64,000 nucleotides of DNA from positions 1,459,575 to 1,523,574 of the forward strand of contig RHLH01000001.1 of the NCBI GenBank assembly GCA_003712165.1, written 5' to 3'. Source of the DNA: Phycisphaera sp. GTDB lineage: Bacteria > Planctomycetota > Phycisphaerae > Phycisphaerales > UBA1924. Each line of letters begins with the position of its first letter. Position 1 is the stretch's first letter. Made by a program: the position numbers and the translations under genes. Under the pieces are notes generated by a model that was given only the letters and a program-made list of their open reading frames with translations, was not told where the DNA came from and ran no database searches. This document shows positions 38,777-58,771 of this stretch, piece by piece.

Positions 38777-41221
38777 ATGACCAACAATGATGACAACGCG
38801 GGCAGCACGAAGCCGCGCGATGTCTCTCTCAACGTTCTGAGGGGGCCGAATCAGAGAAAGAGGCCCCATTCGAAGATGGGCAAACGCCGGGCCGCGGTGC
38901 TGATCTTCGTGCACATCCTTATTGTTGCTCACATCATCCAGTGGCTCATCACGGGATCAACGGTTTCGCCGGTCGAGCCGAGCGAGTCGATGGAAACGCT
39001 CGAGTTCGGCGAGGTCAACGCCGGATTTATCTTCTTTGTGCTTGCCATACTCGCAACCTTTGTGTTCGGGCGTTTTTTCTGCGGCTGGGGGTGCCACGTG
39101 GTGGCTCTCCAAGACGCCTGCACGTGGATGATGAACAAGATGGGCGTGCGGCCCAAGCCTTTCCGATCGAGGCTGCTAGTCTGGGCGCCGCTCATCTTCG
39201 GGCTCTACATGTTTGTCTGGCCCACGTTCAAGAAGGTTGCGCTCTTCCCGGTGCTCATGTCGGTGGGCATCGATCCTCCCATTTGGCTCGGCGGTGTCGC
39301 AGAGTTTCACGGGTTCAGTTCTGCTGTCATCGTTGAGGATTTCTGGGCAACCTTCCCGCCCTGGTTTGTCGCGATCCCGTTCTTCCTGGTCGTTGGGTTC
39401 GCAGCGGTGTACTTCCTTGGGTCGAAGGGATTCTGCACGTACGGGTGCCCCTACGGCGGGATATTTGGTGTCGCCGATCAGATGAGCCCGGGTCGTATCG
39501 TTGTGAACGACAACTGCCAGCATTGCGGCCACTGTACAGCAGTCTGCACGTCGAATGTCCGTGTCGCCGAAGAGGTGCGTGACTTCGGTATGGTTGTTGA
39601 CCCGGGCTGCATGAAGTGTCTCGATTGCGTGAGCGCGTGTCCGAACGATGCTCTGTGCTTCTCATTCGCCAAGCCCGCGATCCTGACGAAACCGGTCGAT
39701 GACGCCGCGAAGCAGCGGCGTGATAAAATCAAATCAAACCCGAAGCGGTTCGATCTCACCTGGCCCGAAGAGATCGCACTCGCTCTGGTATTTATCGCCA
39801 CGTTCATGGCTTTCCGGGGAATGCTGAACCTTGTACCCATGCTCATGGCTGCGGGCATGGCAGGGCTTGGCACGTTCGCGGCGTGGAAGCTCTGGTCGCT
39901 TATCACTAAGCCCAACGTGCGCATCCAGAATCTACAGCTTAAAGCCAAAGGTCGGGTGACCAGAACTGGTATGTCCGCCGGCGCGATCTCGACTCTCATC
40001 CTGCTGAGTGCAACCTGGAGCGGCTGGGTCAACGCGAACAGGTTCCGCGCTCACGTCGCACACGAGCGCATCGACGTGCCGCTTCAGATCGTGCTGCGGG
40101 ACGTGTATGTCCCGACAGAGGAAACACTCGCAAGGGCAAAGCGGGGGTATGAATCGTATCGGAACACTGCGGCGTTCTCGGAGGGCGGTTTCGGATGGCC
40201 TCTCAACGCAGAGCAGAAACGCAAGATGGCCTTTCTCGCCCTGATCGTCGGTGATGAAGCGCACGCGACCTCGCTGCTGAGGAAAGTAGTCGAAGAAGGC
40301 AACCCGACCGAGAGCCTCGTCAGGCAGATTGCTCAACTCATGAGAAGGCAGGGGGCGAGCGACAGCGACATCCTGGCATTCCTCCAGCAGCACGTGGAGT
40401 CTCGGGAAACGACCTCGGATCTCGTTCCCGATATCGCGATGCGCCTGACAAACGCCAACAACAACGATCCTTCTGATGCCTTTACCTTCTTCGACAAACT
40501 CATCGGCACCAGAGTCGACAACAGATCGTACAGGCTGCAGGCTGCGGAGTTCTCGATCGCGGCAGCCAGATGGGATCTCGTCCAGAGCTACCTCTCGGGA
40601 GTCGATGAGGAAGAGGTAGACACGGTCAATGACCTGATCCTGCTCGCAAGAATCAGAGCCAAGCTGAGAGAGAGAGAGAGGGCGATCGCTCTACTTCAAC
40701 GTGCTGCGGAGAACGAGAACGCCAGCGCACATCAACTGGGGGTCGTTATCTCGCTCCTATCTGCTGTCGGTGCTCAAGAGCTTGCGCTCTCCGTTGGAAA
40801 GGATGTAGCCGAGCGGTACCCAGAGTCGATCGCCCTGCTCCAGAGCGTGGCGGCGGTCGAGATGAGCCAGGGCGAAGCTGACTCGGGGCGGGCACGCATC
40901 CAGACAGCGGTTTCTCTGGCCGAGGAATCCCCTTGGGAGCTCCTTTCTATTGGTGAGTCTGCGGTGAGATTCGGACTGACTCTCAGGGACCGAGCGACAG
41001 CCGAGATCGGGCTGCAGGCGCTCATGGCTGCACGGGATCTCAAACCGGAATCGCCCATCATCGTCCACGATCTGGGGCAGGCTCTGCTGGCGACCGGGGA
41101 CCTCGACGCCGGGCTTGGGCTCATTAGACAGGCCTCCGAAATGGCTCCCACGAACAAACCGCTCGAGGCGGCGGCCGAACGTGCCCGTCAAAACGTCGAT
41201 CGAGTCCGGCAGGGCAGCTGA
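38777..41221 (+). CDS. Integral-membrane polyferredoxin (NapH/MauN/CcoG-like, 4Fe-4S dicluster) fused to a C-terminal TPR-like helical repeat domain
   Basis: 814 aa. FCGWGCH and CTYGCPYGG membrane-proximal Cys motifs. CQHCGHCTAVCTSN and CMKCLDCVSACPND (2x CxxCxxCxxxC). Several TM segments, then ~400 aa of helical repeats. Confidence 0.7.
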   Translation: MTNNDDNAGSTKPRDVSLNVLRGPNQRKRPHSKMGKRRAAVLIFVHILIVAHIIQWLITGSTVSPVEPSESMETLEFGEVNAGFIFFVLAILATFVFGRFFCGWGCHVVALQDACTWMMNKMGVRPKPFRSRLLVWAPLIFGLYMFVWPTFKKVALFPVLMSVGIDPPIWLGGVAEFHGFSSAVIVEDFWATFPPWFVAIPFFLVVGFAAVYFLGSKGFCTYGCPYGGIFGVADQMSPGRIVVNDNCQHCGHCTAVCTSNVRVAEEVRDFGMVVDPGCMKCLDCVSACPNDALCFSFAKPAILTKPVDDAAKQRRDKIKSNPKRFDLTWPEEIALALVFIATFMAFRGMLNLVPMLMAAGMAGLGTFAAWKLWSLITKPNVRIQNLQLKAKGRVTRTGMSAGAISTLILLSATWSGWVNANRFRAHVAHERIDVPLQIVLRDVYVPTEETLARAKRGYESYRNTAAFSEGGFGWPLNAEQKRKMAFLALIVGDEAHATSLLRKVVEEGNPTESLVRQIAQLMRRQGASDSDILAFLQQHVESRETTSDLVPDIAMRLTNANNNDPSDAFTFFDKLIGTRVDNRSYRLQAAEFSIAAARWDLVQSYLSGVDEEEVDTVNDLILLARIRAKLRERERAIALLQRAAENENASAHQLGVVISLLSAVGAQELALSVGKDVAERYPESIALLQSVAAVEMSQGEADSGRARIQTAVSLAEESPWELLSIGESAVRFGLTLRDRATAEIGLQALMAARDLKPESPIIVHDLGQALLATGDLDAGLGLIRQASEMAPTNKPLEAAAERARQNVDRVRQGS

Positions 41222-41471: not shown

Positions 41472-42833
41472 ATGAGAATGAGAATTTGCTTTGCACTCGT
41501 AGGCTGTGCCGCGATGGCTGGATCGGTGTCCGCTCAGGGTGCTGATGTCATCGCTGGTGACATCACTGGCCCGTCCTTCTGGGGCGGCCTCAACGGTGTC
41601 TCGGCCTACTCCATCGGTACCGAGTCGTGCAACATCGGTGATGTCGATCTCCTCTGGGACGACACCACAAGCGATGGAACACCTGCAAACCTTCACCCGC
41701 TCATGTCTCAGAACATGTTCCGCATGAAGGACGGCCGCTTCGAGCAGATCGGACAGAGCTGGCTCAAGCACGCATTCTTCGCTATTCAGGGCAGCGGCCT
41801 CTGCGCCCCGACATGTGACGCGCACCCGACCGGCGACGCCCTCGGCCCAGGCTGCAACGACCCCTACAGCTCAGGTCTCAACGGCTCGCAGAGTGGTCTT
41901 GGTCCGAAGTTCGAGGTCAACGCTGCGACTGGTGCGTACCCGTGGCCCTTCACCGGCGACGGCCAGACCGGCAACGTCCTCTACAAGCGAATCCAGGTCG
42001 ATAACGACGATCTCAACCCCTCGATGAACGCAGGCGCCATGTACTTTGGCGAAGGCCACTACGTGACCCCTGACGACGCCGCGGCTGGCAACGACAACAA
42101 CAACGCGTCGTACCGCCGCATCAACATCGGCAGCTTCTCCAGCGGCGGCTACAACGCCAACTTCACGGGCTCAACGATGCGTGGTTCGCCCGCGATTCAG
42201 GCCTGGCAGGACTTCGATGGAAGCGTCGTACTCAACTCGCTCGACGTCCCCAACGACGGCCGTTTCTGGATTGGGTACAAAACCTCCGACAACGGTGATG
42301 GCACGTGGCACTACGAGTACGCGATCTACAACCTGAACTCCGATCGTTCGGGCGGCAGCTTCCGCGTCCCGATCGGCAACGGTGTGACCGTCACCAACAT
42401 CGGCTTCCACGACGTGGATTACCACTCGGGTGAGCCGTTTGACAACACCGACTGGACCGGTTCGGTCGTCGGCAACGAGGTCGTCTGGAACTCACCCGCC
42501 GACTTCAACACCGATCCCAACACCAACGCCCTCCGCTGGGGCACGCTCTACAACTTCCGCTTCGACGCGGACGCACCGCCCCAGAGCGTCGACGCAGTCC
42601 TCGGCATGTTCAAGCCAGGCGCTCAGACGGACTACAACGTTCCCGGCGCCGGCCCCGAAGGCGCTGACTGCCTCGCCGACGTGAACGGTGACGGCGCCGT
42701 CACCCCGACGGACTTCACCGCCTGGGTCAACGCATTCAACAACAACCTCCCCGAGTGCGATCAGAACGGCGACAACGCATGCACCCCGACGGACTTCACC
42801 GCCTGGGTTGCGAACTTCAACGCCGGCTGCTAA
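41472..42833 (+). CDS. Secreted protein of unknown function with a C-terminal Cys-bounded dockerin-like module
   Basis: 453 aa with signal peptide MRMRICFALVGCAAMAGSVSAQG. I do not recognise the body. The tail is CLADVNGDGAVTPTDFTAWVNAFNNNLPECDQNGDNACTPTDFTAWVANFNAGC. Confidence 0.7.
   Translation: MRMRICFALVGCAAMAGSVSAQGADVIAGDITGPSFWGGLNGVSAYSIGTESCNIGDVDLLWDDTTSDGTPANLHPLMSQNMFRMKDGRFEQIGQSWLKHAFFAIQGSGLCAPTCDAHPTGDALGPGCNDPYSSGLNGSQSGLGPKFEVNAATGAYPWPFTGDGQTGNVLYKRIQVDNDDLNPSMNAGAMYFGEGHYVTPDDAAAGNDNNNASYRRINIGSFSSGGYNANFTGSTMRGSPAIQAWQDFDGSVVLNSLDVPNDGRFWIGYKTSDNGDGTWHYEYAIYNLNSDRSGGSFRVPIGNGVTVTNIGFHDVDYHSGEPFDNTDWTGSVVGNEVVWNSPADFNTDPNTNALRWGTLYNFRFDADAPPQSVDAVLGMFKPGAQTDYNVPGAGPEGADCLADVNGDGAVTPTDFTAWVNAFNNNLPECDQNGDNACTPTDFTAWVANFNAGC
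42669..42833 (+). other. C-terminal double PTDFTAW / DxNxDG dockerin-like module, copy 2
   Basis: Same 4-Cys, two-repeat layout as 6861-7028, and it ends in Gly-Cys-stop. Confidence 0.7.
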
Positions 42834-42920: not shown

Positions 42921-44738
42921 TCAGGGAGCCGCGGCGGCTTCCGCGGTCGGCAGGGCGTACTCAAGCGGGCCGCCAAGGCCGAGGTCCCACCCAAAGTACA
43001 TCCAGATCAGCAGCATGATCGCCCAGCCAATCGTGAACACGATCGTGTATGGCATCATCATTGCGACCAACGTGCCCATGCCGCTCTTGGGGGCGTACTG
43101 CTGCATGAACACAAGCACGATCACCAGGTACGGGTTCAGCGGCGTGATGATGTTCGATGTCGAGTCACCGATCCGGTATGCCGCCTGTGTGAGCTCCGGG
43201 CTGATGCCGGCAAACATGAGCATCGGAACGAAGATAGGTGCAAACATCGTGTACTTCGCTGACATCGACCCGATGAACAGGTTAAACACCATCGTCACCA
43301 GGATGAACGCGATGACCAATTCGCTCGGGCCGAGGCTGCTCTGCGAGAGCATCATGCCGCCCTCGAACGCGATCATCTTGTCGAGGTTGCTGTACTTGAG
43401 ATACTCGATGAACTGAGCCGCGAAGAACGCGAGCACAATGATCGGGGCCATGTTCGCGATCGCCCCGATCATGACCTTCGCAGCGTCTTTGCTCGAGGTG
43501 ACGTTCTTTAGAACAATGCCGTAGACGATGCCCGGGATGATGAACCCGAGGAAGATCAGGGGCGTGACGACGCTCACCCAGCGCTCGAACTGCGGGCTCC
43601 GTTTCTGGAATGCCTCGCCCTCAGTTGTCACGAAGATCGTCGCTTCTGCATCTACGTAGTAACCCTTGCCCTCAACCACAAGCGCAGGATCGGGTTCAGT
43701 CACATCGATCTGGCCTTGGTACGCGTCCGCGAGATACATAGCTGGTGGCTTGTCTGGTTGAAGTGGGTCAATGAGGCCCGGGATCTTGTCGTCATGGAGA
43801 GGCATGCCAGGCACCAGGACTGTGAACAGGAAAATCCCGATCAGCACACCCATCGTCACGACAGACGCAATAAGCCCCTTCTTTTCCTGCTCTGTGAGCT
43901 CCTGAGCCTCTAATTCGCTGTCGTCGATCTCGGAAGGCCCGCCGTCTTCGGGCGATTTGCCTGCAAGACGCCGCTCAACGAAGAACGAGGTCACAGCCCA
44001 GCCCATGCCGGTCACGACGAACGTTGATGTGATCGCGAACCACCAGTTGCACGTCGCGGCGACCGCGTAGTCCTCGTCCAGGATGTTCGCGCCGATCTGC
44101 GACAGGTTGGCCAGCATCGGGTCGAGGCCCGTGATGAGCAGGTTCGCGTTGAAGCCTGCCGCGACACCCGCGAAGACCGCGGCGATACCAGCGAGGGGCG
44201 ATCGGCCGACGGATTTATACATCGCAGCCGCCAGCGGGGGGAGCACGACGTAGCCCGCGTCGAGGCCCATCGAGCTCATGATGCCAAGGAACAGCATCGT
44301 CGGGGTCAGCATCGTGTTCGGGACGATCTTCATGAATGCTTTGAGCATCGCTCCGATCATGCCTGTGCGCTCGGCGACCCCGATCCCGAGCATGCCGGTC
44401 AGCACGATGCCGAGCGGGGCGAAGCCCATGAAGTTGGCCACCATGCTCTGCAGACACCAGTACAGCCCGTCCGCGGTCAGAAGGCTCTGGGGTGTCAGGA
44501 CATCTCCTTTATCCTCGAACCCGATCACGGTCTCACCAGCCTCGTTGACGGTCTGCACTGCCTGCTGAGGCTGGACTGTCCAGCCCGAGCTCACGGCGAC
44601 CTGGCTCGCGATCATGACGATCACGGCGCCGATCAGAAAGAGCAGGGCGGGATCGGGCAGCTTGTTGCCGATCCATTCAACGAGATCAAGAAGCCCACGC
44701 CGCTTGGCGGGCACGGATGCGGGGTCGGTGTCAGTCAT
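42921..44738 (-). CDS. AbgT family transporter (p-aminobenzoyl-glutamate / antimetabolite transporter family)
   Basis: Polytopic protein. The N-terminus LLDLVEWIGNKLPDPALLFLIGA matches my recollection of the AbgT/MtrF start. Start taken at MTDTD (44738); an in-frame ATG also exists at 44774. Confidence 0.8.
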   Translation of the reverse strand: MTDTDPASVPAKRRGLLDLVEWIGNKLPDPALLFLIGAVIVMIASQVAVSSGWTVQPQQAVQTVNEAGETVIGFEDKGDVLTPQSLLTADGLYWCLQSMVANFMGFAPLGIVLTGMLGIGVAERTGMIGAMLKAFMKIVPNTMLTPTMLFLGIMSSMGLDAGYVVLPPLAAAMYKSVGRSPLAGIAAVFAGVAAGFNANLLITGLDPMLANLSQIGANILDEDYAVAATCNWWFAITSTFVVTGMGWAVTSFFVERRLAGKSPEDGGPSEIDDSELEAQELTEQEKKGLIASVVTMGVLIGIFLFTVLVPGMPLHDDKIPGLIDPLQPDKPPAMYLADAYQGQIDVTEPDPALVVEGKGYYVDAEATIFVTTEGEAFQKRSPQFERWVSVVTPLIFLGFIIPGIVYGIVLKNVTSSKDAAKVMIGAIANMAPIIVLAFFAAQFIEYLKYSNLDKMIAFEGGMMLSQSSLGPSELVIAFILVTMVFNLFIGSMSAKYTMFAPIFVPMLMFAGISPELTQAAYRIGDSTSNIITPLNPYLVIVLVFMQQYAPKSGMGTLVAMMMPYTIVFTIGWAIMLLIWMYFGWDLGLGGPLEYALPTAEAAAAP

Positions 44739-44823
44739 GGGGGGGATTCTCGCGGATACCCACCCCCAAGGCAACCGAGGCGGATTCTCACCATGACCAC
44801 CCTATCTTGTCGAGAATGGAAGG

Positions 44824-45567
44824 ATGAAGAGCGTCGCGGTCCCGTACACGGCCAGCATGGGGGTAGGCGTGAATTCAGTCCCGCAGGAAACCTCGAGGCT
44901 AGGCTCGCTCATCCCGCCGGCCATCCTCGTCCTGCTTGTGCTGGGTGTCTGTATGGTCACCGCCTTCATGCTCGAAGGCGACGCAAGGCAGCAGTTCCTC
45001 GCCGAGTCAGGGCCTATCGAGACCGGGAGTGCTCTGAGCTACGTCGCCATCACTGTTCTGCTCTGCGGCTTCTCGTTCTGGCGAGTAGACCGTCGCTTCA
45101 CACTCCAGACCGCCGCGATCTCAGCCTTGCTCTTGGCGCGCGAGCTGGATTGTCACAACAGATTCACGACCGAGGGCGTGTTCCGCTCGAGTTTCTACTT
45201 CCGTAACAACGCATCGATCTCGGAGAAGATCATCGTCTCGATCATCATGATCGGGATCATCATCCTGCTCATCGACTACGCGCGAAGATACGCGGGCAGG
45301 TATATCAGGGGCGCATTGTCACTGACACCCTGGGTCCTTTGCGTCGGGGCTGGATTTGCGATGATCGTCCTGGGCAAAGCCATGGACTCATCTACGTGGG
45401 CGTTTGAGGTTGTGGGCGTAGAGCAACAACTCTCGATCAGCCTGATCAACATCCTCGAAGAGTCGCTCGAACTCGCCGGGGCCGTAGCGCTGCTTTGCGC
45501 TTCAGTTCTGTATATCCGTTCGGCTCTGCGGGAACGATCACCGAGAGCCAAGCCTCTCAACTCTTGA
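44824..45567 (+). CDS. Hypothetical polytopic membrane protein
   Basis: 247 aa with about 6 hydrophobic segments. No recognisable motif. Confidence 0.5.
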   Translation: MKSVAVPYTASMGVGVNSVPQETSRLGSLIPPAILVLLVLGVCMVTAFMLEGDARQQFLAESGPIETGSALSYVAITVLLCGFSFWRVDRRFTLQTAAISALLLARELDCHNRFTTEGVFRSSFYFRNNASISEKIIVSIIMIGIIILLIDYARRYAGRYIRGALSLTPWVLCVGAGFAMIVLGKAMDSSTWAFEVVGVEQQLSISLINILEESLELAGAVALLCASVLYIRSALRERSPRAKPLNS

Positions 45568-45787
45568 TTTCGGTCGAGGGTTCCTGCACCTTGCCACCCG
45601 CGATGAGTTCATCGCAGATCAGCTGCGCCTCAGTTTCCGAGTTGCACCGCTGATAGGTCGTCCACGAGTTCTGGCTCGATCTCCTCCATATCCACCAGTC
45701 GCCGTTCAGATCGTGCGCGACTCGGTAAGGGGCGTTCGGGACGAACCTCCGGGCAGGTGCCGAGCCTGATGAATTTGGCTGCAACAT
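45557..45787 (-). CDS. Small hypothetical protein (76 aa), last gene of the SecA-like operon
   Basis: ATG 45787 is preceded by AAGGAGG 7 nt upstream and lies 62 nt after the SecA-like stop. Trp-rich core DLNGDWWIWRRSSQNSWTTYQRCNSETEAQLICDEL. Confidence 0.5.
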   Translation of the reverse strand: MLQPNSSGSAPARRFVPNAPYRVAHDLNGDWWIWRRSSQNSWTTYQRCNSETEAQLICDELIAGGKVQEPSTEIKS

Positions 45788-45849: not shown

Positions 45850-47850
45850 TTAACTCTTCGAGGTATGCATGGCCATCTCTTGCCAGGCGTCGCTCCGTGC
45901 AGTTGTGACCCTATGAGATGCCGCCCTGCGGGAGGCCAGCCACTGGGCCTGGCGCCAGAGCAACGCGGTCAGGGGCTTGATTGAGAGCTTTTTGGCCAGC
46001 CATATCAGGGGGGGGAGGCCCGACGCACAGATGAGCTGATCGTCGAACGCGACATACATCTGCGCGGCACCGGGGTCGCCCTGTCTGCCCGCCCGACCGA
46101 ACAGCTGGCGATCCACGCGACGCTCCGAGTGTCTTTCGGTTCCGAGTACAAACAGGCCGCCGAGTTCCTTGGCCTCTGGGTCGAGTTTGATGTCAGTCCC
46201 TCGGCCTGCCATGTTCGTCGCGACCGTGACCGCGCCGACCTTGCCCGCGTGAAGCACGATCTCGGCTTCTTCCTTCTCGCGCTCGGCGTTTAGGACCCTG
46301 CACACGATCCCCTTCTCGATCAGCATCGCGCCGAGCTTCTCAGACGTCAGGACGCTCCGGGTCCCGATGAGCACGGGCTTGCCCTTCTTGTGAAGCTGCG
46401 CAGTCCTTTCGACCACGGCTTCCAGTTTCGCGTCTTCGTTTTCGAACACGACATCCTCGCGTTCGTCACGAATGACGGGTCTGTGTGTCGGCACGCGAAC
46501 GACCGCTTCGCCGTACGTGCGCCAGAGTTCGTCGGTTACTTCCTTGAGCGTGCCGCTCATCCCCGCAACGTATCTGTACTGCTGGAAGAATCTCGCGTAG
46601 CTGATGCGCGTTGATGTCCGCCTGGCTACCGTCGGATTGAGCCCTTCTTTGGCTTCGACCGCCTGATGAAGCCCGGCTTGCCACTGCCTTCCCTCAAGCA
46701 CGCGTCCCGTCGAGCGATCGACGATCTCGATTTTGTCATCACGGATGATGTAGTCATCACCCTTGATTTGTATCTCCTTCGCCAGCAGCGCGGTCCGCAC
46801 GATCTCCTCGCTTCGCCTGGGCCCGGTCCAGAACGCGGGGAACGATCTGGTCATTTCTCTCAGCTTTGCACGCCCCATGTCGGTGATCTCGACATGTCTG
46901 AGCTTGCGATCAACCTTGTAGTCCCCCCCCTCGACCATGTCTCTTGCGATCGCGCAGGCCGTCCTGTGGTGTGCCCCGCTCCGGTCTTCGCCTGAGCGTT
47001 CGCTGAGCTCCTCAGCCGCGATGATCGCGGGCGTGGCTGCCTCGTCGATCAGGATGCTGTCGACTTCGTCGATGATGACCGCATTGAACCCCCGATGCAC
47101 TACACCCCGGTGCCAGCTCGGCTCGCCCTCTCCCGAGAGCTCGTGCAGGATCGATCCCGAGAGCGACACAGCGGGGGGAATCTCAAGGCGATCGCGCAGA
47201 AAGTCGAAGACGATCTGCTTGTCAGCCGCGTACGTGATGTCCGCGTCGTACGCAGCCTTACGATCGCCCCTTGGGGTGCTGTCGACCACCACGCCCACGC
47301 TCATCCCGAGCCTCTTGTACACGGGAGATGTGATCTCGGCGTCTCGGCTGGCGAGATAGTCATTTACCGTGAGCACGTGGACACCCCGGCCTGACCAGCC
47401 GTGGAGCACGGTCGGCAGGATCGCGGTGACCGTCTTGCCTTCGCCGGTCGCCATCTCCGCGAGCGCACCGTCGGCCATAATGAGACCGCCGATCACCTGC
47501 TCAACGTAAAGCGAGAGCCCAAGCTCCCTGCGGATCGCTTCACGCGTCAGAGCAAACGCATCATCGACCGCCCGGGCTTTGTCACGCCCGAGAAGCACCG
47601 CGTCGCGGTACTCATCCGTCAGCTCGCGCAGCGCAGCATCGCTGTGGTTTCGAAGCGCGTCAGATGCCTCGACGATCCGCTCGGCTCGTTCAGTGCGGTT
47701 GTACTTGAACGTCTTGCGTGCGTACTTGCCGTGGACCCAGCTTCCGAACATGTCGAACCCGTCTGGGGGAGGGGAGCGCCTGACGGAACGCGAGAGCATG
47801 GGCCAAAGCCTTCGCGACGCGGGCGGCATGTGCTCGGCGAGCAGACTCAA
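45850..47850 (-). CDS. SecA-like ATPase: DEAD motor plus preprotein-crosslinking-like insert, lacking the canonical C-terminal scaffold/wing/CTL domains
   Basis: 666 aa. Walker A MATGEGKTVTAILP (47431-47454), VHVLTVNDYLASRD, DEVDSILIDEAATP, TGRVLEGRQWQAGLHQAVEAKEG, NMAGRGTDIKL, GRAGRQGDPG followed by only ~72 aa. The TTG start overlaps the upstream stop (TTGA). Confidence 0.85.
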   Translation of the reverse strand: MSLLAEHMPPASRRLWPMLSRSVRRSPPPDGFDMFGSWVHGKYARKTFKYNRTERAERIVEASDALRNHSDAALRELTDEYRDAVLLGRDKARAVDDAFALTREAIRRELGLSLYVEQVIGGLIMADGALAEMATGEGKTVTAILPTVLHGWSGRGVHVLTVNDYLASRDAEITSPVYKRLGMSVGVVVDSTPRGDRKAAYDADITYAADKQIVFDFLRDRLEIPPAVSLSGSILHELSGEGEPSWHRGVVHRGFNAVIIDEVDSILIDEAATPAIIAAEELSERSGEDRSGAHHRTACAIARDMVEGGDYKVDRKLRHVEITDMGRAKLREMTRSFPAFWTGPRRSEEIVRTALLAKEIQIKGDDYIIRDDKIEIVDRSTGRVLEGRQWQAGLHQAVEAKEGLNPTVARRTSTRISYARFFQQYRYVAGMSGTLKEVTDELWRTYGEAVVRVPTHRPVIRDEREDVVFENEDAKLEAVVERTAQLHKKGKPVLIGTRSVLTSEKLGAMLIEKGIVCRVLNAEREKEEAEIVLHAGKVGAVTVATNMAGRGTDIKLDPEAKELGGLFVLGTERHSERRVDRQLFGRAGRQGDPGAAQMYVAFDDQLICASGLPPLIWLAKKLSIKPLTALLWRQAQWLASRRAASHRVTTARSDAWQEMAMHTSKS

Positions 47851-50030
47851 TTGAGCCGTCCGTCGATGAACTGCTGAACCCGCCTCGAAACCCGCGAAAG
47901 GATCGTGCTGGGTTTGAGTGCGACCCTGACTTTGGCTCGCCTGCCGGGGAGCAATCCATCGGTTGTTTCGGGCGTGACATCCACGAGCGTGAACGTTTCG
48001 AGCGATCGGCCTCCCTGCTGCGGGTCTGCGACGATCTCACCGCCGGTGACCGTCGAGAACTGCATCGACTCGATGTCTTTCGTCCCTGCGGGCCAGACGC
48101 GGGTCACGTTTGCAGGGATCGTTCTCCATGCTTCGCCTCGCAGCCGCACCTCGGTTCGGGCGTTCTGTTCGCTGAGTACAGGAAGGACAGCGCCCGCTCT
48201 CGCGTCCGTGATCGCTGCGCGGACCACGTAGCTGTCTTCGGGGATTACCGCTGCGATGACCGAGCCTCGTTCCAGGAACCGCCCGATCATGTTCCCCATC
48301 TCGTGACCCGAGCCGCCGATTGCGACAAACGTGCCGTCGATCTCGGCGATCACTTCCAGATCCCGCGCTCGCTCCTCGAATTCTTCAGCCTCGGCGAGCG
48401 TGCGTTCGTACTGAGCCTCGGCGACACGCCGCTCGGCGATGCCTCTGATCGACGAATCGTCAAGCGTCGCACTTGCCCGGTCGATGCGGGCGCGTGCCGC
48501 CCTGAGATCAGCAAGGATCGACGGGTTCTTGAGTTCGATCAGCACATCGCCCTTGGAGACACGCGATCCCGGCTCAACCGCGATCCGTTCGATGTAGCCC
48601 GAAGAGAGCGGTCTGACGATCGACAGCCCCTCTGACTCGACGACCGCGGGCAATGTCCCCGAAGCCGGCATCGGAATGACGCACAGCAACAGCACGATCG
48701 GACCAACGATCGCAAGCGTGACCCCGATGCTCCTGCTCCGTCTGCCCATCAGCTGGGGCGAAGTCAGCAGGAACCAAGTTGCCTTTACAACGGGCCAGAC
48801 GAACCACACAAACCCAAAGAACACCGCGAGAATGAGCCCGAGGCTGAGATACTGCGTGGAGATGATCGCCAGGATTGAGAACGTGATGAAAAGCCTGTAG
48901 GGCACTGCGCACGCGTGGTATGCAAAGAGCAGCCTCGCTTCAGCCGTGTCACGGATGTAGGGCGGCCTGGCGCTGATCACCCCGAACCATTTCTTGTGAA
49001 TCCAGTACTGCCAGATCGACTTGGCGCGCTGAGCCAGGTTTGGCGCACCGGCGAGATCGCACAAGATGTAATAGCCGTCGTAACGAAGAAGCGGGTTGGC
49101 GTTGAAGATCACAGTCGACACGCCCGAGATGAGCATCGTGTTGAACGCCAGCGCCCTCGCGAGCCCGGGCTCGGCGAACGCCCAGATGAACGTGGCGATC
49201 GCGGCGAAGAATATCTCCACGATCATCCCACCCAGTCCAACGACAACCCGGCGCCAGGTCTCCGAGAATTTCCAGGAACTCGACGCGTCGCAGTAGGGCA
49301 GGGGCAGCAGCATCGCAATCAGCATGACACCGATCTCGGTGCACCTGCCGCCCATCGCCTTGCAGGCCATCGCGTGCCCGAACTCGTGGACCGCACGGAT
49401 GAACAGGAAGAGGATGCCGATCCAGACGAGGTTCGCTGGGTCAAGGATGCCGTTGAAATCGCTGCTCAGCCGATCTGTGTGCGTGAGGAAGACACCGATC
49501 GCCGAAAGAACGAGCAAGAGCCAGGCGGCGAAACCGTACCGTGACCACATGACACGGAGGTATGGCTCGAGCCCCCGAAGCACCGGCTCTGGGTTCAAGA
49601 GCGGGATGTTGAAGAACATCCAGTTGCCAGTCCGCTGCTTGAGCCGCTGCTGCTTGAGCCTCGCCTGGCGTTCTGGCACCATATCCGCCGCGATTGGCTG
49701 GTCCCCTACGAGTAGACCGAAGAGCTGCATCTGCGAGAGCAGCTCGATGCACTCTTTCTGCGTCGGCGCATCGTCACCGAGCTGTGCCAGGCATGCTTCC
49801 CAAGCGTTGTCGACTGTTCGTTTGCCGTCGAGCAGCCCGAGGAAAAACCGCGCAGATTCGCTGAGCCTGTAGAAATGACCGCCCGATGGGTCATCGATGA
49901 CATAGCTCACCGTCGGACCGTGACGCTGGCGAACGAATCTCGCGTGCACGCTGACGCGTGGGCGTTGATCCGCCACGCGGTACCACATGTCCGCGAACGT
50001 GCTGCCGATATCTTCGCGCAGGAACGCCAT
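47847..50030 (-). CDS. Fusion protein: PqqD/RRE-like N-domain, M50 (site-2 protease) membrane domain, HlyD-type membrane-fusion domain
   Basis: 727 aa. YVIDDPSGGHFYRLSESARFFLGLLDGKRTVDNAW...ELLSQMQLFGLL (PqqD-like pattern). HEFGH in a TM segment (49374-49388). NANPLLRYDGYY (49074-49097). C-terminal lipoyl-like SSGYIERIAVEPGSRVSKGDVLIELK, a coiled coil and a beta-barrel. Confidence 0.8.
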   Translation of the reverse strand: MAFLREDIGSTFADMWYRVADQRPRVSVHARFVRQRHGPTVSYVIDDPSGGHFYRLSESARFFLGLLDGKRTVDNAWEACLAQLGDDAPTQKECIELLSQMQLFGLLVGDQPIAADMVPERQARLKQQRLKQRTGNWMFFNIPLLNPEPVLRGLEPYLRVMWSRYGFAAWLLLVLSAIGVFLTHTDRLSSDFNGILDPANLVWIGILFLFIRAVHEFGHAMACKAMGGRCTEIGVMLIAMLLPLPYCDASSSWKFSETWRRVVVGLGGMIVEIFFAAIATFIWAFAEPGLARALAFNTMLISGVSTVIFNANPLLRYDGYYILCDLAGAPNLAQRAKSIWQYWIHKKWFGVISARPPYIRDTAEARLLFAYHACAVPYRLFITFSILAIISTQYLSLGLILAVFFGFVWFVWPVVKATWFLLTSPQLMGRRSRSIGVTLAIVGPIVLLLCVIPMPASGTLPAVVESEGLSIVRPLSSGYIERIAVEPGSRVSKGDVLIELKNPSILADLRAARARIDRASATLDDSSIRGIAERRVAEAQYERTLAEAEEFEERARDLEVIAEIDGTFVAIGGSGHEMGNMIGRFLERGSVIAAVIPEDSYVVRAAITDARAGAVLPVLSEQNARTEVRLRGEAWRTIPANVTRVWPAGTKDIESMQFSTVTGGEIVADPQQGGRSLETFTLVDVTPETTDGLLPGRRAKVRVALKPSTILSRVSRRVQQFIDGRLN

Positions 50031-50042
50031 CGGTATGCCTCG

Positions 50043-51950
50043 TTACAGCCAGGACCACATGCGGAACGCGTCCACCATCGGCCTCGTGAGTTCCCAGAGC
50101 GGCGTGCTCCAGCCATCGCTCAGCTTCGCGGTGCCGGTCATCCCGGGCCTCAGCCACTCGGGTGGGTTCTCGATGATCGCCTCGATGAGAAAGACGTTCG
50201 CGCCCTCTCGAGGTTGCGCGACGGGGTTCACACGATCAACAACGATCGGGATCTCCTGACCCGGTCTAGCTCGGCTAGCGATCCAGCCCTTCTGCCCGAC
50301 CTCGACGCGTCCCGCGTTGCGCTCGTCGACCTCGATCACCACTTTCACACCCGGGCCCACGATCTCGAAGAGCGCTTTGGCCGCATCGACAGGGGCTCCG
50401 ACGAGTTTCTCGAGATCGCCCCGGCTCACTGTGCCGTCGATGGGCGCACGAAGCTGTGCGAGAGTCAGTCGCTCATTGATCAGGTCGATCGACGCGTTCG
50501 CCTCTTCGATCTCGGCCTCACGTTGCCGTGCGAGTGAACGACTGCCCTCAGCGAGCGCGTTGTCCCGCTGCGTCGTGAGAGTCGCGACCCGCTCGTTGAG
50601 TTCAGTCAGGCTCAGCATGAGCTCGGTGGTATCGAGCGTCGCGACGACATCGCCCGCCTGAACGGAATCACCTGGCCTGACCTCGAAGCTCTTGAGGAAC
50701 CCCGCAAACGGCGGGACCACCGCCCGGCCGATCTCTGCCTTGAGTTCCATTGAGCCCTTTACCCTCGAGGGGATCGGGATAATCGCGAGCAGGATGAAGA
50801 TCACAAGAGCCGTGAGCGCCAGCAGCTTCTTGCCTGTATGCCTTGGGCCGACAATGCCTGCGCCGAGATCCACCATGTCATCGCGCAGGACCTCGGGCGT
50901 GCGCCTATCCGCGAGCCTTCGGGTGTACACTGCGGGCCCGACGAACTCTGCGATCAGACGAAGCAGCGGGAGGACCGCGTCCGGGAACGGGTCGGAGGCG
51001 TCGCGTTCGAGCACCATCACGCCAACCAGGTCATCTTCGATCCGTAGCGGCAGGCTCACGATCGAGCTGGGCCCGAACGACTCGCTCAGCCTCGCGTGCT
51101 CGTGCGTCACACGTCGGCTGCCGGGCTCATTCTCCATCATCTGGGACGGTGGGTACAGCACCTCCGCATCCTGGAGAGCCGCCTCTTCCATGACCGCTTC
51201 GAGTGCTTCGACTGTTGGCGCGTGCTTGTCCAGGTCGTCTGAGCCGCTCACGGACACAACGCGGAGGTAGTCGCCTTTGAGCATCCCGATGGAGACACGT
51301 GTGCAGCCGAACCGGCGGCGCATCTCATCGCAAAGCAGAGACCCCATCGCTGAGGCTGTGGCACCCTTCTGCGCCTGGTCGAGGAGTTCCAGCGTCTCGC
51401 GGAGCATGACCTTGTGCTCGGCTTCGGTCAGGAACGACTGCTTCCAAAGGAAGCCCTCGAATCTCGCTGCGCTCAGGGAGAGCCTGTCGAGCTTGATGCT
51501 CTGGGGTTCTCTGTCCGAGGTGGGCACGAGAACGATGCTTGCTCCTTCGCTCTTGCCGTCGGCAGTAAGCGGGGCAGCCAGTGCTGTGTGTGTCGCGCTG
51601 GCGGCGTAGAAATCGTGCGCACCGGCGAGTGTCATAGCTTCCGACATGCCAGCGGATGATGACTGCGACGCCTTCTGCCCGAGTGTGCTCAGCTTCTTCG
51701 TCGTTGACTCGTCGAACGCGATGTCTTCGTTCGCGTGGTACACGACGAAGACCCCTGCCGGTCTCGACTTTCCTTGGCGCAAGAAAACGGCGCCTGCATC
51801 GGCGCCGGTGATCTTGCACTGGAATTCGAGAAGCTTGCCGAGGAATTCGCGGAGCGCGTAGTGCCTGGCACCCTGCGGCGTCTCTACAGACTGTGCCGAG
51901 TCGGTCGTGATCTCACCAGCTTGGCTCTCGGTCTGTTGTTCGGTTGACAT
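50043..51950 (-). CDS. Tandem GAF-like domains, single TM, HlyD-type membrane-fusion domain
   Basis: 635 aa. The cytoplasmic N-terminal half has two GAF-like segments (...ADAGAVFL..., ...IVSLPLRIEDDLVGVMVLER...). TM LLALTALVIFILLAIIPIP. Lipoyl-like FAGFLKSFEVRPGDSVQAGDVVATLD, coiled coil, barrel. Confidence 0.72.
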   Translation of the reverse strand: MSTEQQTESQAGEITTDSAQSVETPQGARHYALREFLGKLLEFQCKITGADAGAVFLRQGKSRPAGVFVVYHANEDIAFDESTTKKLSTLGQKASQSSSAGMSEAMTLAGAHDFYAASATHTALAAPLTADGKSEGASIVLVPTSDREPQSIKLDRLSLSAARFEGFLWKQSFLTEAEHKVMLRETLELLDQAQKGATASAMGSLLCDEMRRRFGCTRVSIGMLKGDYLRVVSVSGSDDLDKHAPTVEALEAVMEEAALQDAEVLYPPSQMMENEPGSRRVTHEHARLSESFGPSSIVSLPLRIEDDLVGVMVLERDASDPFPDAVLPLLRLIAEFVGPAVYTRRLADRRTPEVLRDDMVDLGAGIVGPRHTGKKLLALTALVIFILLAIIPIPSRVKGSMELKAEIGRAVVPPFAGFLKSFEVRPGDSVQAGDVVATLDTTELMLSLTELNERVATLTTQRDNALAEGSRSLARQREAEIEEANASIDLINERLTLAQLRAPIDGTVSRGDLEKLVGAPVDAAKALFEIVGPGVKVVIEVDERNAGRVEVGQKGWIASRARPGQEIPIVVDRVNPVAQPREGANVFLIEAIIENPPEWLRPGMTGTAKLSDGWSTPLWELTRPMVDAFRMWSWL

Positions 51951-51976: not shown

Positions 51977-52366
51977 TCAGTCAGCCAGCTTCGGGCCTTC
52001 TTCGGCACCGGGAGCGCGCTGGATGGCGATCTCGCCGTTGCGCTCCTCGTACTGGCGGATGACCTGCCCGAGGGTGATGGCGAGCCTCTTGGCTGCCGAC
52101 CAGTTCATGATGGTGCGGTTGCCCACCGAGAAGAGCAGGGCGGGCTGGCCGTCCGGGCCCTGGGTGGGGAGGTTCATGCCGAAATCGAGCACGACCTCGT
52201 CGTTGGTGGTGGAGGTGCGGATGGTGTTGGCGTAGGTCGAGGTCATCTTGCTCTCGTCGATACGAAGCTGGACCTGCTGCTGTTGCTGCTGCTCGTCGGC
52301 CATCTGGGTGTCGCCTTTCATCTGGTTTTCGGTTTGTGACGTCGTGGGGCCGGTCTCCGCCGGCAT
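51977..52366 (-). CDS. DUF3467-like small protein with an N-terminal poly-Gln tract
   Basis: TSTYANTIRTSTTNDEVVLDFGMNLP...NRTIMNWSAAKRLAITLGQVIRQYEERNGEI matches my recollection of the DUF3467 pattern. The start is uncertain (ATG at 52366, 52321 or 52303). It lies 26 nt upstream of the GAF-MFP gene. Confidence 0.55.
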   Translation of the reverse strand: MPAETGPTTSQTENQMKGDTQMADEQQQQQQVQLRIDESKMTSTYANTIRTSTTNDEVVLDFGMNLPTQGPDGQPALLFSVGNRTIMNWSAAKRLAITLGQVIRQYEERNGEIAIQRAPGAEEGPKLAD

Positions 52367-52509: not shown

Positions 52510-53325
52510 TCAGAAGCTCACACGGGCGTGCATGCCGCTGGGCAGCAGCTCGGGGTTGGGCACCTCGATCCGGATGAGCACCTCCCGGACGCTGGCCTCA
52601 CCCGCGGTGCTGATGAAGATGATCTTGCCATCTGCGGGAGCGTCCGTCTCAACATCAAGCCAGACAACACTCGCGGATTGGCCGACCTCAAGCGTGCGAG
52701 ATACGGGAACTGGCACGCTCACGTCGATGCGGACCGGGTTCACCTGCACGATTGTGACCACGGGCGTCTGCTCGTCCACCGTCTCGCCTTCGCGGCGGGA
52801 GATGTTGATGACGTCGCCGTCAATCGTGGAGTGCATGCTCATCTCGTCGAGACGGGCCTGTTCGCGCTCGACGGTGATCCTGCGTTGTTCTGCCTCGAGT
52901 TCTGCCGCTCTGACCTCGACCTTCGCACGATCGACAGAGAATCGTGCCTCGCGGAGATCCTGCTGGTTGGCGCCGCCCTCAGCGCTGGATTGCTCGACGA
53001 GTTCGAGTTCGCGCTCGGCGAAATCGAGCGAGATCCGAGCGAGCTGCAGCCGTGTATCGTCAGCCTGCTGGGCCTGAGCCAGTGCAAGGGATGCCCGCTG
53101 GACAGCATCATCGAGCTTCATGATGTGGTCGCCGACCTTCACCTGATCGCCGGGTTCAACGTTTACATCCGCGATCTTGCCCCGGACCGCAAACGCGAGC
53201 TCGCGCACTTGCGAGGGACGGGAGACGCCCGTGTAGGCACCGGGCTGGGGGATGGTGAGGCCGCCCAGGGTGAGGAATGCCAACGAAGAAGCTGCAGCAG
53301 CCAACAGGATCGCTCGGTTCCGCAT
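52510..53325 (-). CDS. Periplasmic membrane-fusion (HlyD / efflux adaptor) family protein
   Basis: Start MRNRAILLAAAASSLAFLTLGG (signal peptide) with a GGAGGA RBS. Lipoyl-like VRGKIADVNVEPGDQVKVGDHIMKLD, a short coiled coil and a beta-barrel. The longer track ORF runs through the tRNA and is rejected. Confidence 0.75.
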   Translation of the reverse strand: MRNRAILLAAAASSLAFLTLGGLTIPQPGAYTGVSRPSQVRELAFAVRGKIADVNVEPGDQVKVGDHIMKLDDAVQRASLALAQAQQADDTRLQLARISLDFAERELELVEQSSAEGGANQQDLREARFSVDRAKVEVRAAELEAEQRRITVEREQARLDEMSMHSTIDGDVINISRREGETVDEQTPVVTIVQVNPVRIDVSVPVPVSRTLEVGQSASVVWLDVETDAPADGKIIFISTAGEASVREVLIRIEVPNPELLPSGMHARVSF

Positions 53326-53392
53326 CGGGAGGTCCTCCGAATAAAGTGGATCATCGGGTTGAGAGGTCGCTGGTCTGTAGCGACTTGTTGAA

Positions 53393-53476
53393 TGCCGGAG
53401 GGGGGACTTGAACCCCCACTCTGTTTCCAGAAGTGGATTTTGAATCCACCGCGTCTGCCAATTCCGCCACTCCGGC
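53393..53476 (-). tRNA. tRNA-Leu (CAA anticodon), type II with long variable arm
   Basis: Minus strand: GCCGGAG-TG-GCG..CGC, anticodon arm GTGGA-TTCAAAA-TCCAC, variable arm TCTGGAAACAGA, T arm GGGGG-TTCAAGT-CCCCC, acceptor CTCCGGC, discriminator A. No encoded CCA. Confidence 0.9.
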
Positions 53477-53639
53477 TTTGAGGCGATCATGCACCGGGCA
53501 GCCCCCAAGGTCAACTGCTTCCTCTGGCGCTTGGTCCGATGCGGGCAGGGTTCTACACTTGTCTCCTGTCCAAACCCCGACCCGGCCGGCGCCGGGGCGG
53601 TTTCTGTGAGCCATACGTACCCAGCCGAGGGAAGATCCA

Positions 53640-55001
53640 ATGTCCGAGTCCACCGAGCAGCGAATCAGCACGTGCACCGTTTCAGACGCGGGGCCCTGCC
53701 TCAAGCGGCTCAGCATCGAAGTCCCGGCTGACGTCGTCACCGAGCGGATCGACGAGTCTTTCGACACCCTGATCAGCGAGGCCGCCCTCCCGGGCTTCCG
53801 CAAGGGGCACGCCCCCAAGGGTCTCATCGAGAAGCGGTTCGGCGATTCAGTCCGAGGCGAAACCAAGAGCCAGCTCGTCGCGACCGCGTATTCGGAGTCG
53901 ATCGAGGAGCACGGCATCAAGGTCGTCGGTGATCCGATCTCCGAGTCGCTCCCCGATGCCAAGCTTGAGAAGGGCCAGCCCCTGAAATTCGAAGTGGACG
54001 TCGAGGTGATGCCCACGTTCGACTTGCCCGAACTCGACAAGCTGGCGATCAAGAAGCCCGTTCTCGATGTGGATGACTCGGTCGTCGCCGACGAGATCGA
54101 GAAGCTCACGCTCGCAGAGGGCGAGCTCGAAGAGCAGGAGACTGCTGCTGCCGGGGATTACATCTCTGGCCACGGCATCATGAAGGCCGGCGACGAGGTC
54201 ATCCACGACATCCCCGGCGCGGTTGTTCAGGTGCCCACCGACAAGGAAGGCATGATCCTTGGTGTGATGGTTGCCGACTTCGCCAAGCAGCTTGGCAAGC
54301 CCAAGGCCGGTGACGAGGTCTCGATCAAGACCAAGGGTCCGGAGCACCACGAGGTTGAGGCTGTCCGCGGGCAGGACCTGGATATCACGTTCAAGGTCGA
54401 GCGCGTTGATCGCATCATCCCCGCGGAGATCGATCCACTGCTTGAGCGTTTCGGCCTGGAATCCAAGGAGAAGCTTGAGGAGGCGATCAAGAACCGCCTC
54501 GAGCAGCGTGCCGCTGTTGAGCAGCAGATGGTCATGCGTCAGCAGGTCGCGAGCCATCTCCTCAAGAACGTTGACATGGAACTCCCCGAGCGTCTGACCG
54601 CCAAGCAGAGCGAGCGGATGCTCCAGCGGAAACGCGCCGAGCTGATGTACAGAGGCGTCGATCCGATGGAGATTGAAACGAACATCGCAAAGCTCCGCGA
54701 AGCGTCAGCGAGCGAAGCCTCCCGCGAGACCAAGCTCTTCTTCATGCTGAGCAAGGTCTCCGAAGATCGCGGCGTGCAGATCCAGCAGGCCGAGGTCGAC
54801 GGCGCGATCGCACAGATGGCCTTCCGCCAGGGCGTGCGTCCGGAAGGCTTGCGTCAGCAACTGATCCAGAACAAGCAGATCGGCACCATCGTCCAGCAGG
54901 TCATGGAGCACAAGGCTCTCGACTCGATCATCTCGACCGCGGAGATCGAAGAGGTCAGCAAAGACGAGTGGGAGAAGTTTGCCAAAGAGCAGAACAACTG
55001 A
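53640..55001 (+). CDS. tig: Trigger factor
   Basis: 453 aa. Ribosome-binding signature region LPGFRKGHAPKGLIEKRFG, a central FKBP-like region and a C-terminal helical arm domain. Confidence 0.92.
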   Translation: MSESTEQRISTCTVSDAGPCLKRLSIEVPADVVTERIDESFDTLISEAALPGFRKGHAPKGLIEKRFGDSVRGETKSQLVATAYSESIEEHGIKVVGDPISESLPDAKLEKGQPLKFEVDVEVMPTFDLPELDKLAIKKPVLDVDDSVVADEIEKLTLAEGELEEQETAAAGDYISGHGIMKAGDEVIHDIPGAVVQVPTDKEGMILGVMVADFAKQLGKPKAGDEVSIKTKGPEHHEVEAVRGQDLDITFKVERVDRIIPAEIDPLLERFGLESKEKLEEAIKNRLEQRAAVEQQMVMRQQVASHLLKNVDMELPERLTAKQSERMLQRKRAELMYRGVDPMEIETNIAKLREASASEASRETKLFFMLSKVSEDRGVQIQQAEVDGAIAQMAFRQGVRPEGLRQQLIQNKQIGTIVQQVMEHKALDSIISTAEIEEVSKDEWEKFAKEQNN

Positions 55002-55034: not shown

Positions 55035-55059
55035 CTGATCCAATCAGGAATTGACTCAG

Positions 55060-55094
55060 CCGGACGCTTTATCTGAAGCGTCCGGTTGTTCTTT
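55060..55094 (+). terminator. Intrinsic terminator (plus orientation) between convergent genes
   Basis: CCGGACGCTT-tatctg-AAGCGTCCGG followed by TTGTTCTTT. Confidence 0.55.
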
Positions 55095-55494
55095 AGGCGT
55101 GCTCTTCGTCGTCGATGGACTCGTCATCGGGCAGGGCAGCGATCTCGAGTTCATCCGATTTGGCACTCGCGCTGATGGTGCCGCACTTGGGACAGATGAC
55201 TCCGTACTGGCCGGGAGGCTCGTTGTCGAGTTTTTCACCGCAGCCGATGCAGACAGGATTGCTGAGCTGAGCCGCAACCTTGTTGACGACCAAAGCCGCC
55301 ACGGCGAAAGCTCCGACGACAACTGGGAGGGTTGGCAAGATGCTCATAGAGAGGAGCCCAAGCGTCGCCAGTCCGAGGCCCAAGACGATACCGAACGCGC
55401 GGAGTCGGAGCTTGTGCAGGTACGCGATCTGCTTCTCGACCGCCAGTCGCTTCGACCTGTACCACTCTCTCAGCATGGCGACTCCCTGGCCCAC
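55093..55494 (-). CDS. Small membrane protein with a C-terminal zinc-ribbon (CxxC...CxxC) and acidic tail
   Basis: 133 aa with two hydrophobic helices (FGIVLGLGLATLGLLSMSIL, VVVGAFAVAALVV), then CIGCGEKLDNEPPGQYGVICPKCG. Preferred over the antisense N-terminal extension of the 55051 ORF. Confidence 0.5.
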   Translation of the reverse strand: MGQGVAMLREWYRSKRLAVEKQIAYLHKLRLRAFGIVLGLGLATLGLLSMSILPTLPVVVGAFAVAALVVNKVAAQLSNPVCIGCGEKLDNEPPGQYGVICPKCGTISASAKSDELEIAALPDDESIDDEEHA

Positions 55495-55575
55495 ACCATC
55501 TTGTGGGGCAGCAGTACTGTATCGTCATCTGGATCGCAGGGCGAACAGGCCGCTGGCGGGTTTAGAGTGCTCTTC

Positions 55576-58757: not shown

Positions 58758-58771
58758 GAGGCGGGGTTGTG

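Follow-up and report, generated by a model that had tools for sequence, protein, structure and literature searches.

A conserved operon around an RRE, site-2 protease and membrane-fusion protein in a Phycisphaera genome, a candidate leader-removing exporter of LEPR-XLL giant proteins

A 64,000-nucleotide stretch of a Phycisphaera sp. genome (GenBank assembly GCA_003712165.1, contig RHLH01000001.1, positions 1,459,575 to 1,523,574 of the forward strand), hereafter the window, carries a closely packed operon with a gene that joins a RiPP recognition element (RRE; RiPP, a peptide made by the ribosome and modified after translation), an M50 site-2 protease and a membrane-fusion protein (MFP) in one chain. 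On the minus strand the order is small HlyD-like protein, DUF3467 protein, GAF-HlyD protein, fusion protein and truncated SecA-like ATPase. We regard the three-domain build of the fusion protein and the facts of the operon as practically certain. This gene set and giant proteins bearing the N-terminal LEPR-XLL motif are associated in genomes in both directions of search, and this two-way link points to very large secreted proteins, not small peptides, as the substrates. On balance we lean towards the view that the system is a leader-removing tripartite exporter with a SecA-like motor and LEPR-XLL giants as cargo, in which the fusion protein would be the inner-membrane core subunit.

The fusion protein and its parts are laid out as follows.

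47847 to 50030, minus strand: RRE-M50-MFP fusion protein, ATG start, 727 amino acids, from the open reading frame (ORF) and its translation
49713 to 49940, minus strand: RRE, a PqqD-like winged-helix domain, residues 31-106, from Pfam, the AlphaFold2 model and PDB matches; predicted to be cytoplasmic
48981 to 49541, minus strand: M50 (site-2 protease) membrane core, residues 164-350, from the Peptidase_M50 and daptide_HExxH matches and the model
49374 to 49388, minus strand: HEFGH zinc-binding and catalytic motif, residues 215-219 (H215, E216, H219)
49074 to 49103, minus strand: NANPLLRYDG, the second M50 motif, N310-G319 (NPLLRYDG is residues 312-319, nucleotides 49074-49097)
48678 to 48947, minus strand: three further transmembrane helices, residues 362-451, from hydropathy peaks and the model
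47850 to 48671, minus strand: periplasmic MFP (HlyD/MexA-like) domain, residues 454-727, of which 503-556 form an alpha-hairpin

A preliminary description of this DNA, made from the sequence alone, had called the same ORF and the same three domains. The ORF is as described there, the positions given for HEFGH, NPLLRYDG and the C-terminal half agree with the translation arithmetic, and the three calls (PqqD/RRE, site-2 protease, MFP) are supported by Pfam, NCBIfam and AlphaFold2 with Foldseek. At the N-terminus, Pfam PqqD (PF05402) matches residues 43-106 with 30.8 bits, above its gathering score of 23.4 (E 3.9e-7). When residues 1-140 were modelled alone with AlphaFold2 from a 27-sequence alignment (predicted local distance difference test, pLDDT, 77.6), the domain took a beta3-alpha3 topology, with strands at 31-37, 40-46 and 53-56 and helices at 58-65, 73-87 and 91-103. 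The top Foldseek matches of this model in the PDB were TbiB1 with its leader, lasso B1, TglI, ThcOx and CteB; for the TbiB1:leader complex the probability was 0.99 and the target-normalised template modelling score 0.68. The RRE that had been read from the residue pattern is thus borne out by a PqqD score above threshold, by the modelled topology and by RRE:leader complexes as the best structural matches.

For the membrane core, the best NCBIfam match of the fusion protein is the daptide RRE-S2P model NF041824 (residues 43-408, E 4e-43), at 147.9 bits and under the equivalog cutoff of 300. Peptidase_M50 (PF02163) aligns to residues 206-311 with 25.6 bits against a gathering score of 27.2, and the same family is assigned to many homologues of the fusion protein in precomputed annotation. 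In the C-terminal half, HlyD_3 matches residues 582-652 (32.2 bits, gathering score 22.2), HlyD_D23 and Biotin_lipoyl_2 give sub-threshold matches at residues 467-569, and the NCBIfam subfamily models stay under their cutoffs (RND_mfp, 43.0 against 94.9 bits; type_I_hlyD, 31.8 against 208.65 bits). The full-length AlphaFold2 model (pLDDT 84.2) shows the C-terminal 270 residues as a lipoyl, alpha-hairpin and beta-barrel fold; Foldseek matches this half to MexA, AcrA and MacA with E-values from 1e-14 to 1e-15 (MexA, 6e-15), and its profile matches are MacA, MexA, ZneB and HlyD. In the same model the HExxH and the second M50 motif lie inside predicted helices, a re-entrant beta-hairpin occupies residues 233-247, and the M50 core is followed by helices at 362-393, 395-423 and 431-451, the last of which would anchor the periplasmic MFP domain. 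The predicted topology has the N-terminus inside, seven membrane helices plus the re-entrant hairpin, and the MFP domain outside, the two ends being placed on opposite sides because the number of membrane helices is odd.

Among 42 homologues, with identities as low as 42%, residues H215, E216, G218, H219, N310, N312, P313, D318 and G319 never vary, and we take D318 to be the third zinc ligand expected of an M50 protease. In 82 full-length orthologues, drawn from many phyla, both M50 motifs show at least 95% conservation, which disposes of the degenerate scaffold that the preliminary description had held out as an alternative. Across these orthologues the RRE and the M50 core are the best-conserved regions of the protein, the M50 core ranking first with a mean conservation of 0.49. 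Within the RRE, R55 on beta3 and Q91 and L98 on alpha3 are about 100% conserved and E93 on alpha3 is nearly universal. In known RRE:leader structures the leaders bind along beta3 and alpha3, and the conserved R55, Q91, E93 and L98 probably sit at the putative leader-binding groove. A word-indexed search (E <= 1e-5) returned 2892 matches, nearly all of the top 120 being full length at about 730 residues, and an exhaustive search (E <= 1e-30) returned 3918 clusters at 50% identity, with end-to-end alignments for almost all of the best 150. The closest protein relative is 94% identical, and the named relatives are metagenome-assembled genomes (MAGs) of Phycisphaerales. The source databases use unspecific names ("PqqD family peptide modification chaperone", "putative peptide zinc metalloprotease", "biotin/lipoyl-binding protein"). 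The gene set is widespread, and we found no paper describing it: literature searches on the combinations PqqD+M50+HlyD, SecA-like+HlyD and M50+SecA+HlyD yielded no relevant description.

The other four genes of the operon are these.

45850 to 47850, minus strand: truncated SecA-like ATPase, 666 amino acids, TTG start, from Pfam, alignment and motifs
50043 to 51950, minus strand: GAF-transmembrane-HlyD protein, 635 amino acids, from Pfam GAF_3/GAF and HlyD_3/HlyD_D23
51977 to 52366, minus strand: DUF3467 protein, probable start 52303 (108 amino acids), Pfam DUF3467 at E 2.9e-17
52510 to 53325, minus strand: small secreted HlyD-like protein, 271 amino acids, HlyD_D23 and HlyD_3 above threshold

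The TTG start of the SecA-like gene overlaps the TGA stop of the fusion gene, and a 12-nucleotide spacer containing GAGG separates the GAF-HlyD stop from the fusion ATG. The GAF-HlyD protein consists of a cytoplasmic GAF domain, a single transmembrane helix at 376-394 (a hydropathy peak) and a periplasmic MFP domain. The small HlyD-like protein, whose start was set by comparison with the related locus L001, has an N-terminal signal-peptide-like segment, judged by eye. A tRNA-Leu(CAA) gene lies directly upstream of it (53393-53476, minus strand), and because of this tRNA the 5' extension in ORF 52510-53640 is considered spurious. DUF3467 has no PDB relative, by sequence or by profile, and a literature search on it turned up unrelated papers and nothing relevant. 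A SecB-like chaperone was considered for it, but we make no such claim. PADLOC gave no anti-phage defence match for any of four system proteins. Apart from TolC and a visible substrate gene, the machinery in the window is complete. The SecA-like ATPase, the GAF-HlyD protein and the link to LEPR-XLL giants were no part of the preliminary description.

The SecA-like protein carries SecA_DEAD, SecA_PP_bind and P-loop_SecA (Pfam), and its ATPase motifs are intact (GEGKT136, DEVD261, GRGTD549 and GRAGRQG585, covering Walker A, DEVD and the arginine finger). Both nucleotide-binding domains (NBD1 and NBD2) and the preprotein cross-linking domain (the clamp) are kept. All NCBIfam SecA and SecA2 models score under their cutoffs (538-565 bits against 800-862), Pfam finds no SecA_SW domain, and the protein aligns to B. 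subtilis SecA over residues 20-554 only, with about 40% similarity there. Because the alignment ends at SecA residue 554, the scaffold, wing, two-helix finger and C-terminal tail are absent, and these are the SecA parts that engage SecY, lipids and SecB. Having no SecY-docking part in its sequence, the ATPase is probably SecY-incompetent.

SecA-like domains without scaffold and wing have been reported twice, independently and with no mechanism, in Omnitrophota and Actinobacteria as parts of giant secreted proteins, for which they are the proposed exporters (bioRxiv 10.1101/2023.11.21.568195; eLife PMC8195603). Partners of the M50, PqqD, HlyD, GAF or TolC kind and the LEPR motif are unmentioned in both papers and in a 2026 Omnitrophota preprint. 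In one Omnitrophota locus of the present family (L049), a giant of more than 3100 residues with a LEPR variant (MESRILLSA; 12651-22061) directly follows the fusion gene, and a separate gene for the SecA-like protein is missing. In view of the reported SecA-giants of that phylum, the motor may be fused further downstream, beyond the locus.

At least 590 stretches with the fusion family were confirmed among species-representative genomes, and gene order was counted in the best 80 loci of these. Of the loci whose flank is long enough, 69 of 69 have the GAF-HlyD gene immediately upstream of the fusion gene and on its strand; the SecA-like gene lies immediately downstream, start/stop overlaps included, in 64 of 67 (the exceptions are L049, L060 and L080). 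The loci span Planctomycetota, Beta-, Alpha- and Gammaproteobacteria, Desulfobacterota, Nitrospirota, Rokubacteria, Verrucomicrobiota, Kiritimatiellae and Omnitrophota, and the operon is fixed across at least six phyla. DUF3467 is found directly upstream of GAF-HlyD in 32 loci, again across phyla. Many loci also have a gene for a small secreted HlyD-like protein close by, and in 15 of the 80 the system adjoins a gene for an outer-membrane factor of the TolC type (Pfam OEP, E 1e-34). For the wider surroundings, every ORF within 9 kb was clustered all-against-all in 84 related loci. No tailoring enzyme, regulator, sigma or anti-sigma factor or ATP-binding cassette (ABC) transporter is conserved in these loci, and no short ORF family is common to them across phyla, since only antisense shadow ORFs and the families already listed recur. 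Daptide precursors and MpaB/C/D/M-type enzymes were found neither in the window nor in the 84 loci.

Three relatives on long contigs keep the gene order of the window. On the plus strand the window continues with a probable trigger factor gene (53640-55001, by synteny with L001) and three large glycosyltransferase genes (55051-60457); the window and the related loci L001-L003 alone have this trigger factor-glycosyltransferase synteny in common, and glycosyltransferase synteny, limited to close relatives, is absent from other phyla. The SecA-like gene is directly followed by a 76-residue ORF (45557-45787, minus strand) with two cysteines and the core YRVAxDLxGDWWxWRR...WTTFxRCxSExEA..CDEL. It is conserved in L001, L002/L003 and L006, not in more distant loci. 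As it has no Pfam match and occurs in close relatives only, the idea that it is a precursor or a DUF2188-like protein was set aside.

The association with giant proteins was seen from the system and from the motif. Beside the system, LEPR-type giants occur in eight loci (L033, L038, L041, L049, L059, L071 and L084, with a weak variant in L052), and their leaders take the form of a short basic N-terminal stretch followed by phi-E-x-LEPR-x-LLSAD. The six giants tested exceed the cutoff of NF012209, the NCBIfam LEPR-XLL model of an N-terminal 24-residue motif (19.5-34.0 against 17 bits). A hidden Markov model (HMM) built from the motif gave at least 18 bits for true LEPR matches and at most 8 bits for noise; five of 11 matches to a loose LE.R.. 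regular expression look like chance (L019, L023, L055, L075 and window position 9721). Modules of the system-adjacent giants are of the extracellular type (CARDB, PKD, fn3, Big_7, laminin-G) or RTX repeats. Their LEPR leaders have no hydrophobic core and hence are not Sec signal peptides, and a comparison of complete LEPR proteins brought out no shared C-terminal sorting tag. A Planctomycetota MAG (L071) has two tandem LEPR-XLL ORFs at about nucleotides 756 and 1955 on the minus strand (LEPRLLLDG and LEPRLLLNG), which suggests several substrates per system. Giant RTX-repeat proteins end directly upstream of DUF3467 in Geomonas (L073, 78-7502) and Desulfomicrobium (L039, 23-7378), the former also with a matrixin-like peptidase motif; the N-termini of both lie beyond the loci. 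In the literature found, "LEPR-XLL" occurs as an annotation label only, a single time in each of two papers on unrelated subjects.

In the reverse test, metagenomes were scanned with a 3-sequence LEPR alignment and the pattern EPR[LI]LL[SA]AD, and the best 80 of at least 108 loci were inspected. Retrieved by the motif alone, 12 of these 80 loci have the system nearby; 44 of the 80 extend 3 kb or more upstream of the motif, and in 11 of them the system lies upstream. The giant gene comes after the SecA-like gene, or at its expected position, on the same strand in 10 of the 12 loci, and it adjoins the small HlyD-like gene in L153 and L157. For a single-copy system of about 7 kb in a multi-megabase genome we estimate chance adjacency at well under 1%.

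A working scheme for the exporter can be proposed. Its substrate would be a protein without a Sec signal, typically giant and adhesin-like or enzyme-like, with a short basic N-terminal leader that ends in LEPR-XLL. The RRE would capture this leader at the cytoplasmic face of the membrane, the SecA-like motor would feed the chain in, and the M50 site would take off the leader. The MFP domains of the fusion protein, the GAF-HlyD protein and the small HlyD-like protein would build a periplasmic duct to TolC, by which the cargo would cross the outer membrane, while the GAF domain might gate activity and DUF3467 might serve as an accessory or chaperone. By analogy, LEPR-XLL may be the recognition element of the RRE, near the cleavage site. 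A bolder claim would be a new class of secretion system, in which a SecY-independent SecA-like motor, an RRE-guided M50-MFP, a GAF-gated adaptor and TolC export LEPR giants in one step; we put this forward tentatively, as a possibility somewhat short of even. If true, this would account for the orphan LEPR-XLL motif as well as for the truncated SecA-like domains on giants.

Several points weigh against the exporter. The case for it is built from sequence comparison, genomic context and predicted models, and what we assign to DUF3467 and the GAF domain is guesswork. The system genes include no evident inner-membrane channel, and we know of no M50 protease that conducts polypeptides. The window has no TolC-type gene, and such a gene adjoins the system in only those 15 of the 80 loci. 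Neither the 64-kb window nor the surrounding 10 kb in close Phycisphaerales relatives contain a LEPR-XLL ORF; about 90% of system loci and 75-85% of LEPR loci are not mutually adjacent. The seeds of the reverse test were leaders of system-adjacent giants and its counts come from the best 80 of at least 108 loci, which possibly biases them to orthologues of those giants. Finally, the M50 Pfam score of the fusion protein is slightly under threshold and the Foldseek E-values of the RRE model are marginal (about 0.05), for which reason the fold call rests on Foldseek and Pfam PqqD together.

The preliminary description had proposed that recognition, cleavage and export of a peptide are coupled. 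The coupling in one chain stands, with a precedent in MpaP (PMC10028931), but the small-RiPP setting that it implied does not, the 84 loci holding no tailoring enzymes or shared short ORF family and the score lying far below the daptide cutoff. A system for the maturation of a small RiPP- or bacteriocin-like peptide would have the RRE bind a distant or unannotated precursor, the M50 site cut it and a HlyD/TolC duct export it. Such a system would account for the RRE fold and Pfam PqqD match and for a nearest characterised relative that is a daptide leader peptidase; the window, showing no substrate gene, leaves room for a small unlinked precursor, and the clade-specific 76-residue ORF follows the SecA-like gene. 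That ORF, however, is confined to close relatives and resembles a folded small protein, and the 84 loci have neither a tailoring enzyme nor a short ORF family in common. The fusion protein reaches half of the daptide equivalog cutoff, one would not expect a preprotein motor of the SecA type for a short peptide, and the recurring neighbours are giant LEPR-XLL proteins. We consider small-peptide maturation unlikely.

Two further explanations fit less of the evidence than the exporter. The link to LEPR giants could be real while the system only processes or anchors them, translocation taking another route, or the cargo could be something other than protein, such as a glycan that the products of the adjacent glycosyltransferase genes make in Phycisphaerales. 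This would accommodate the lack of an evident inner-membrane channel, the RTX repeats of the L073 giant, which are typical of classical type I secretion system (T1SS) cargo, and the glycosyltransferase genes near the system in the window and L001-L003. The latter synteny, though, is restricted to close relatives, the SecA preprotein-binding domain is retained and the LEPR leaders are without any Sec signal, so that we hold this to be quite unlikely. Very unlikely, in our judgement, is regulated intramembrane proteolysis or membrane quality control, with the M50 site cutting a regulatory or membrane protein in the manner of RseP or SpoIVFB on a GAF-sensed signal and the HlyD domains acting as scaffolds. 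M50 proteases classically act in signalling and the GAF sensor domain is an obligate partner here, but the surroundings conserve neither sigma or anti-sigma factors nor any further family of regulators and known RREs bind peptide leaders, while the three MFP-type proteins, TolC in 15 loci and an ATPase of the preprotein-translocase type point to transport.

Elsewhere in the window, a 1428-residue protein with a filamentous-haemagglutinin N-terminal (TPS) domain (16156-20442, plus strand) is, because of this domain, probably a two-partner-secretion exoprotein, and the ORF upstream of it (14212-16140) may be its transporter. An alpha-amylase-like protein ends in a GC-type dockerin domain (4197-7028, plus strand) and a 453-residue protein has a type I dockerin/EF-hand motif (41472-42833, plus strand); dockerin-tagged proteins also lie near the system in L002. 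Other genes encode a 4Fe-4S/TPR membrane protein (38777-41221, plus strand), an AbgT-family transporter (42921-44774, minus strand), CheA (29537-32065, plus strand) and the NAD-dependent DNA ligase LigA (10395-12728, minus strand).

Among environmental bacteria it is common to find giant surface or secreted proteins that carry no Sec signal, and little is known of the route by which they are exported. The locus ties the LEPR-XLL tag, truncated SecA-like domains and the export of giant proteins to one concrete, testable machine, and it unites an RRE-guided site-2 protease with MFP/TolC ducts and a motor of the SecA type, three modules that no earlier system had been seen to combine. If the proposal is true, RRE biology would extend from small RiPPs to large secreted proteins. 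Genetics is feasible, as Bradyrhizobium tropiciagri, Geomonas paludis and Azonexus hydrophilus are cultured carriers.

By the families' own criteria the system is not a daptide system, not a T1SS and not a SecA member. Its C-terminal 270 residues share the lipoyl, alpha-hairpin and beta-barrel fold of the adaptors MexA, AcrA, MacA and EmrA, but here that fold is fused to a protease and an RRE, and no pump of the resistance-nodulation-division (RND), ABC or major facilitator superfamily (MFS) type stands alongside. With SecA and SecA2 the ATPase has in common NBD1, the preprotein cross-linking domain, NBD2 and all ATPase motifs; it differs in being without the SecY-, lipid- and SecB-binding parts and in being encoded in a translationally coupled operon with MFP genes.

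The marker that led to the daptide clusters was an intramembrane site-2 protease with an RRE fused to its N-terminus, and this enzyme, MpaP, is described as their RRE-dependent leader peptidase (PMC10028931). Daptide leaders carry the motif E(-8)-L(-7)-x-x-M(-4)-E(-3)-A-P(-1), with Leu(-7) and Met(-4) essential and seated in RRE pockets. The fusion protein resembles MpaP/DapP in its N-terminal RRE on an M50 site-2 protease, matching NF041824 over residues 43-408, and the daptide leader and L-E-A-L-E-P-R have equal L-x-x-hydrophobic-E spacing. Unlike MpaP/DapP it adds three transmembrane helices and a C-terminal MFP domain, it is without MpaA/B/C/D/M-type neighbours and with a SecA-like ATPase in place of an ABC transporter, and its likely cargo is giant proteins where daptides are peptides of about 50 residues.

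The analogy drawn in the preliminary description with C39-peptidase exporters is apt. Like T1SS (HlyB-HlyD-TolC) and the C39 peptidase-containing ABC transporters (PCATs; CvaB, ComA), the system would combine an MFP with a TolC-type duct, place leader recognition and cleavage in an inner-membrane component, and handle large repeat-rich substrates without Sec signals. It departs from both in having no conserved ABC transporter and an ATPase of the SecA type, in up to three different MFP-type proteins, in a putative N-terminal LEPR-XLL signal, theirs being a GG leader or an RTX signal at the C-terminus, and in a zinc M50 protease where the PCATs have a cysteine C39 enzyme. The SecA-giant fusions of Omnitrophota and Actinobacteria share with it the SecA_DEAD and preprotein-binding domains without scaffold or wing and the connection to giant secreted proteins, whereas the motor described here is free-standing, 666 residues long and set in a fixed operon.

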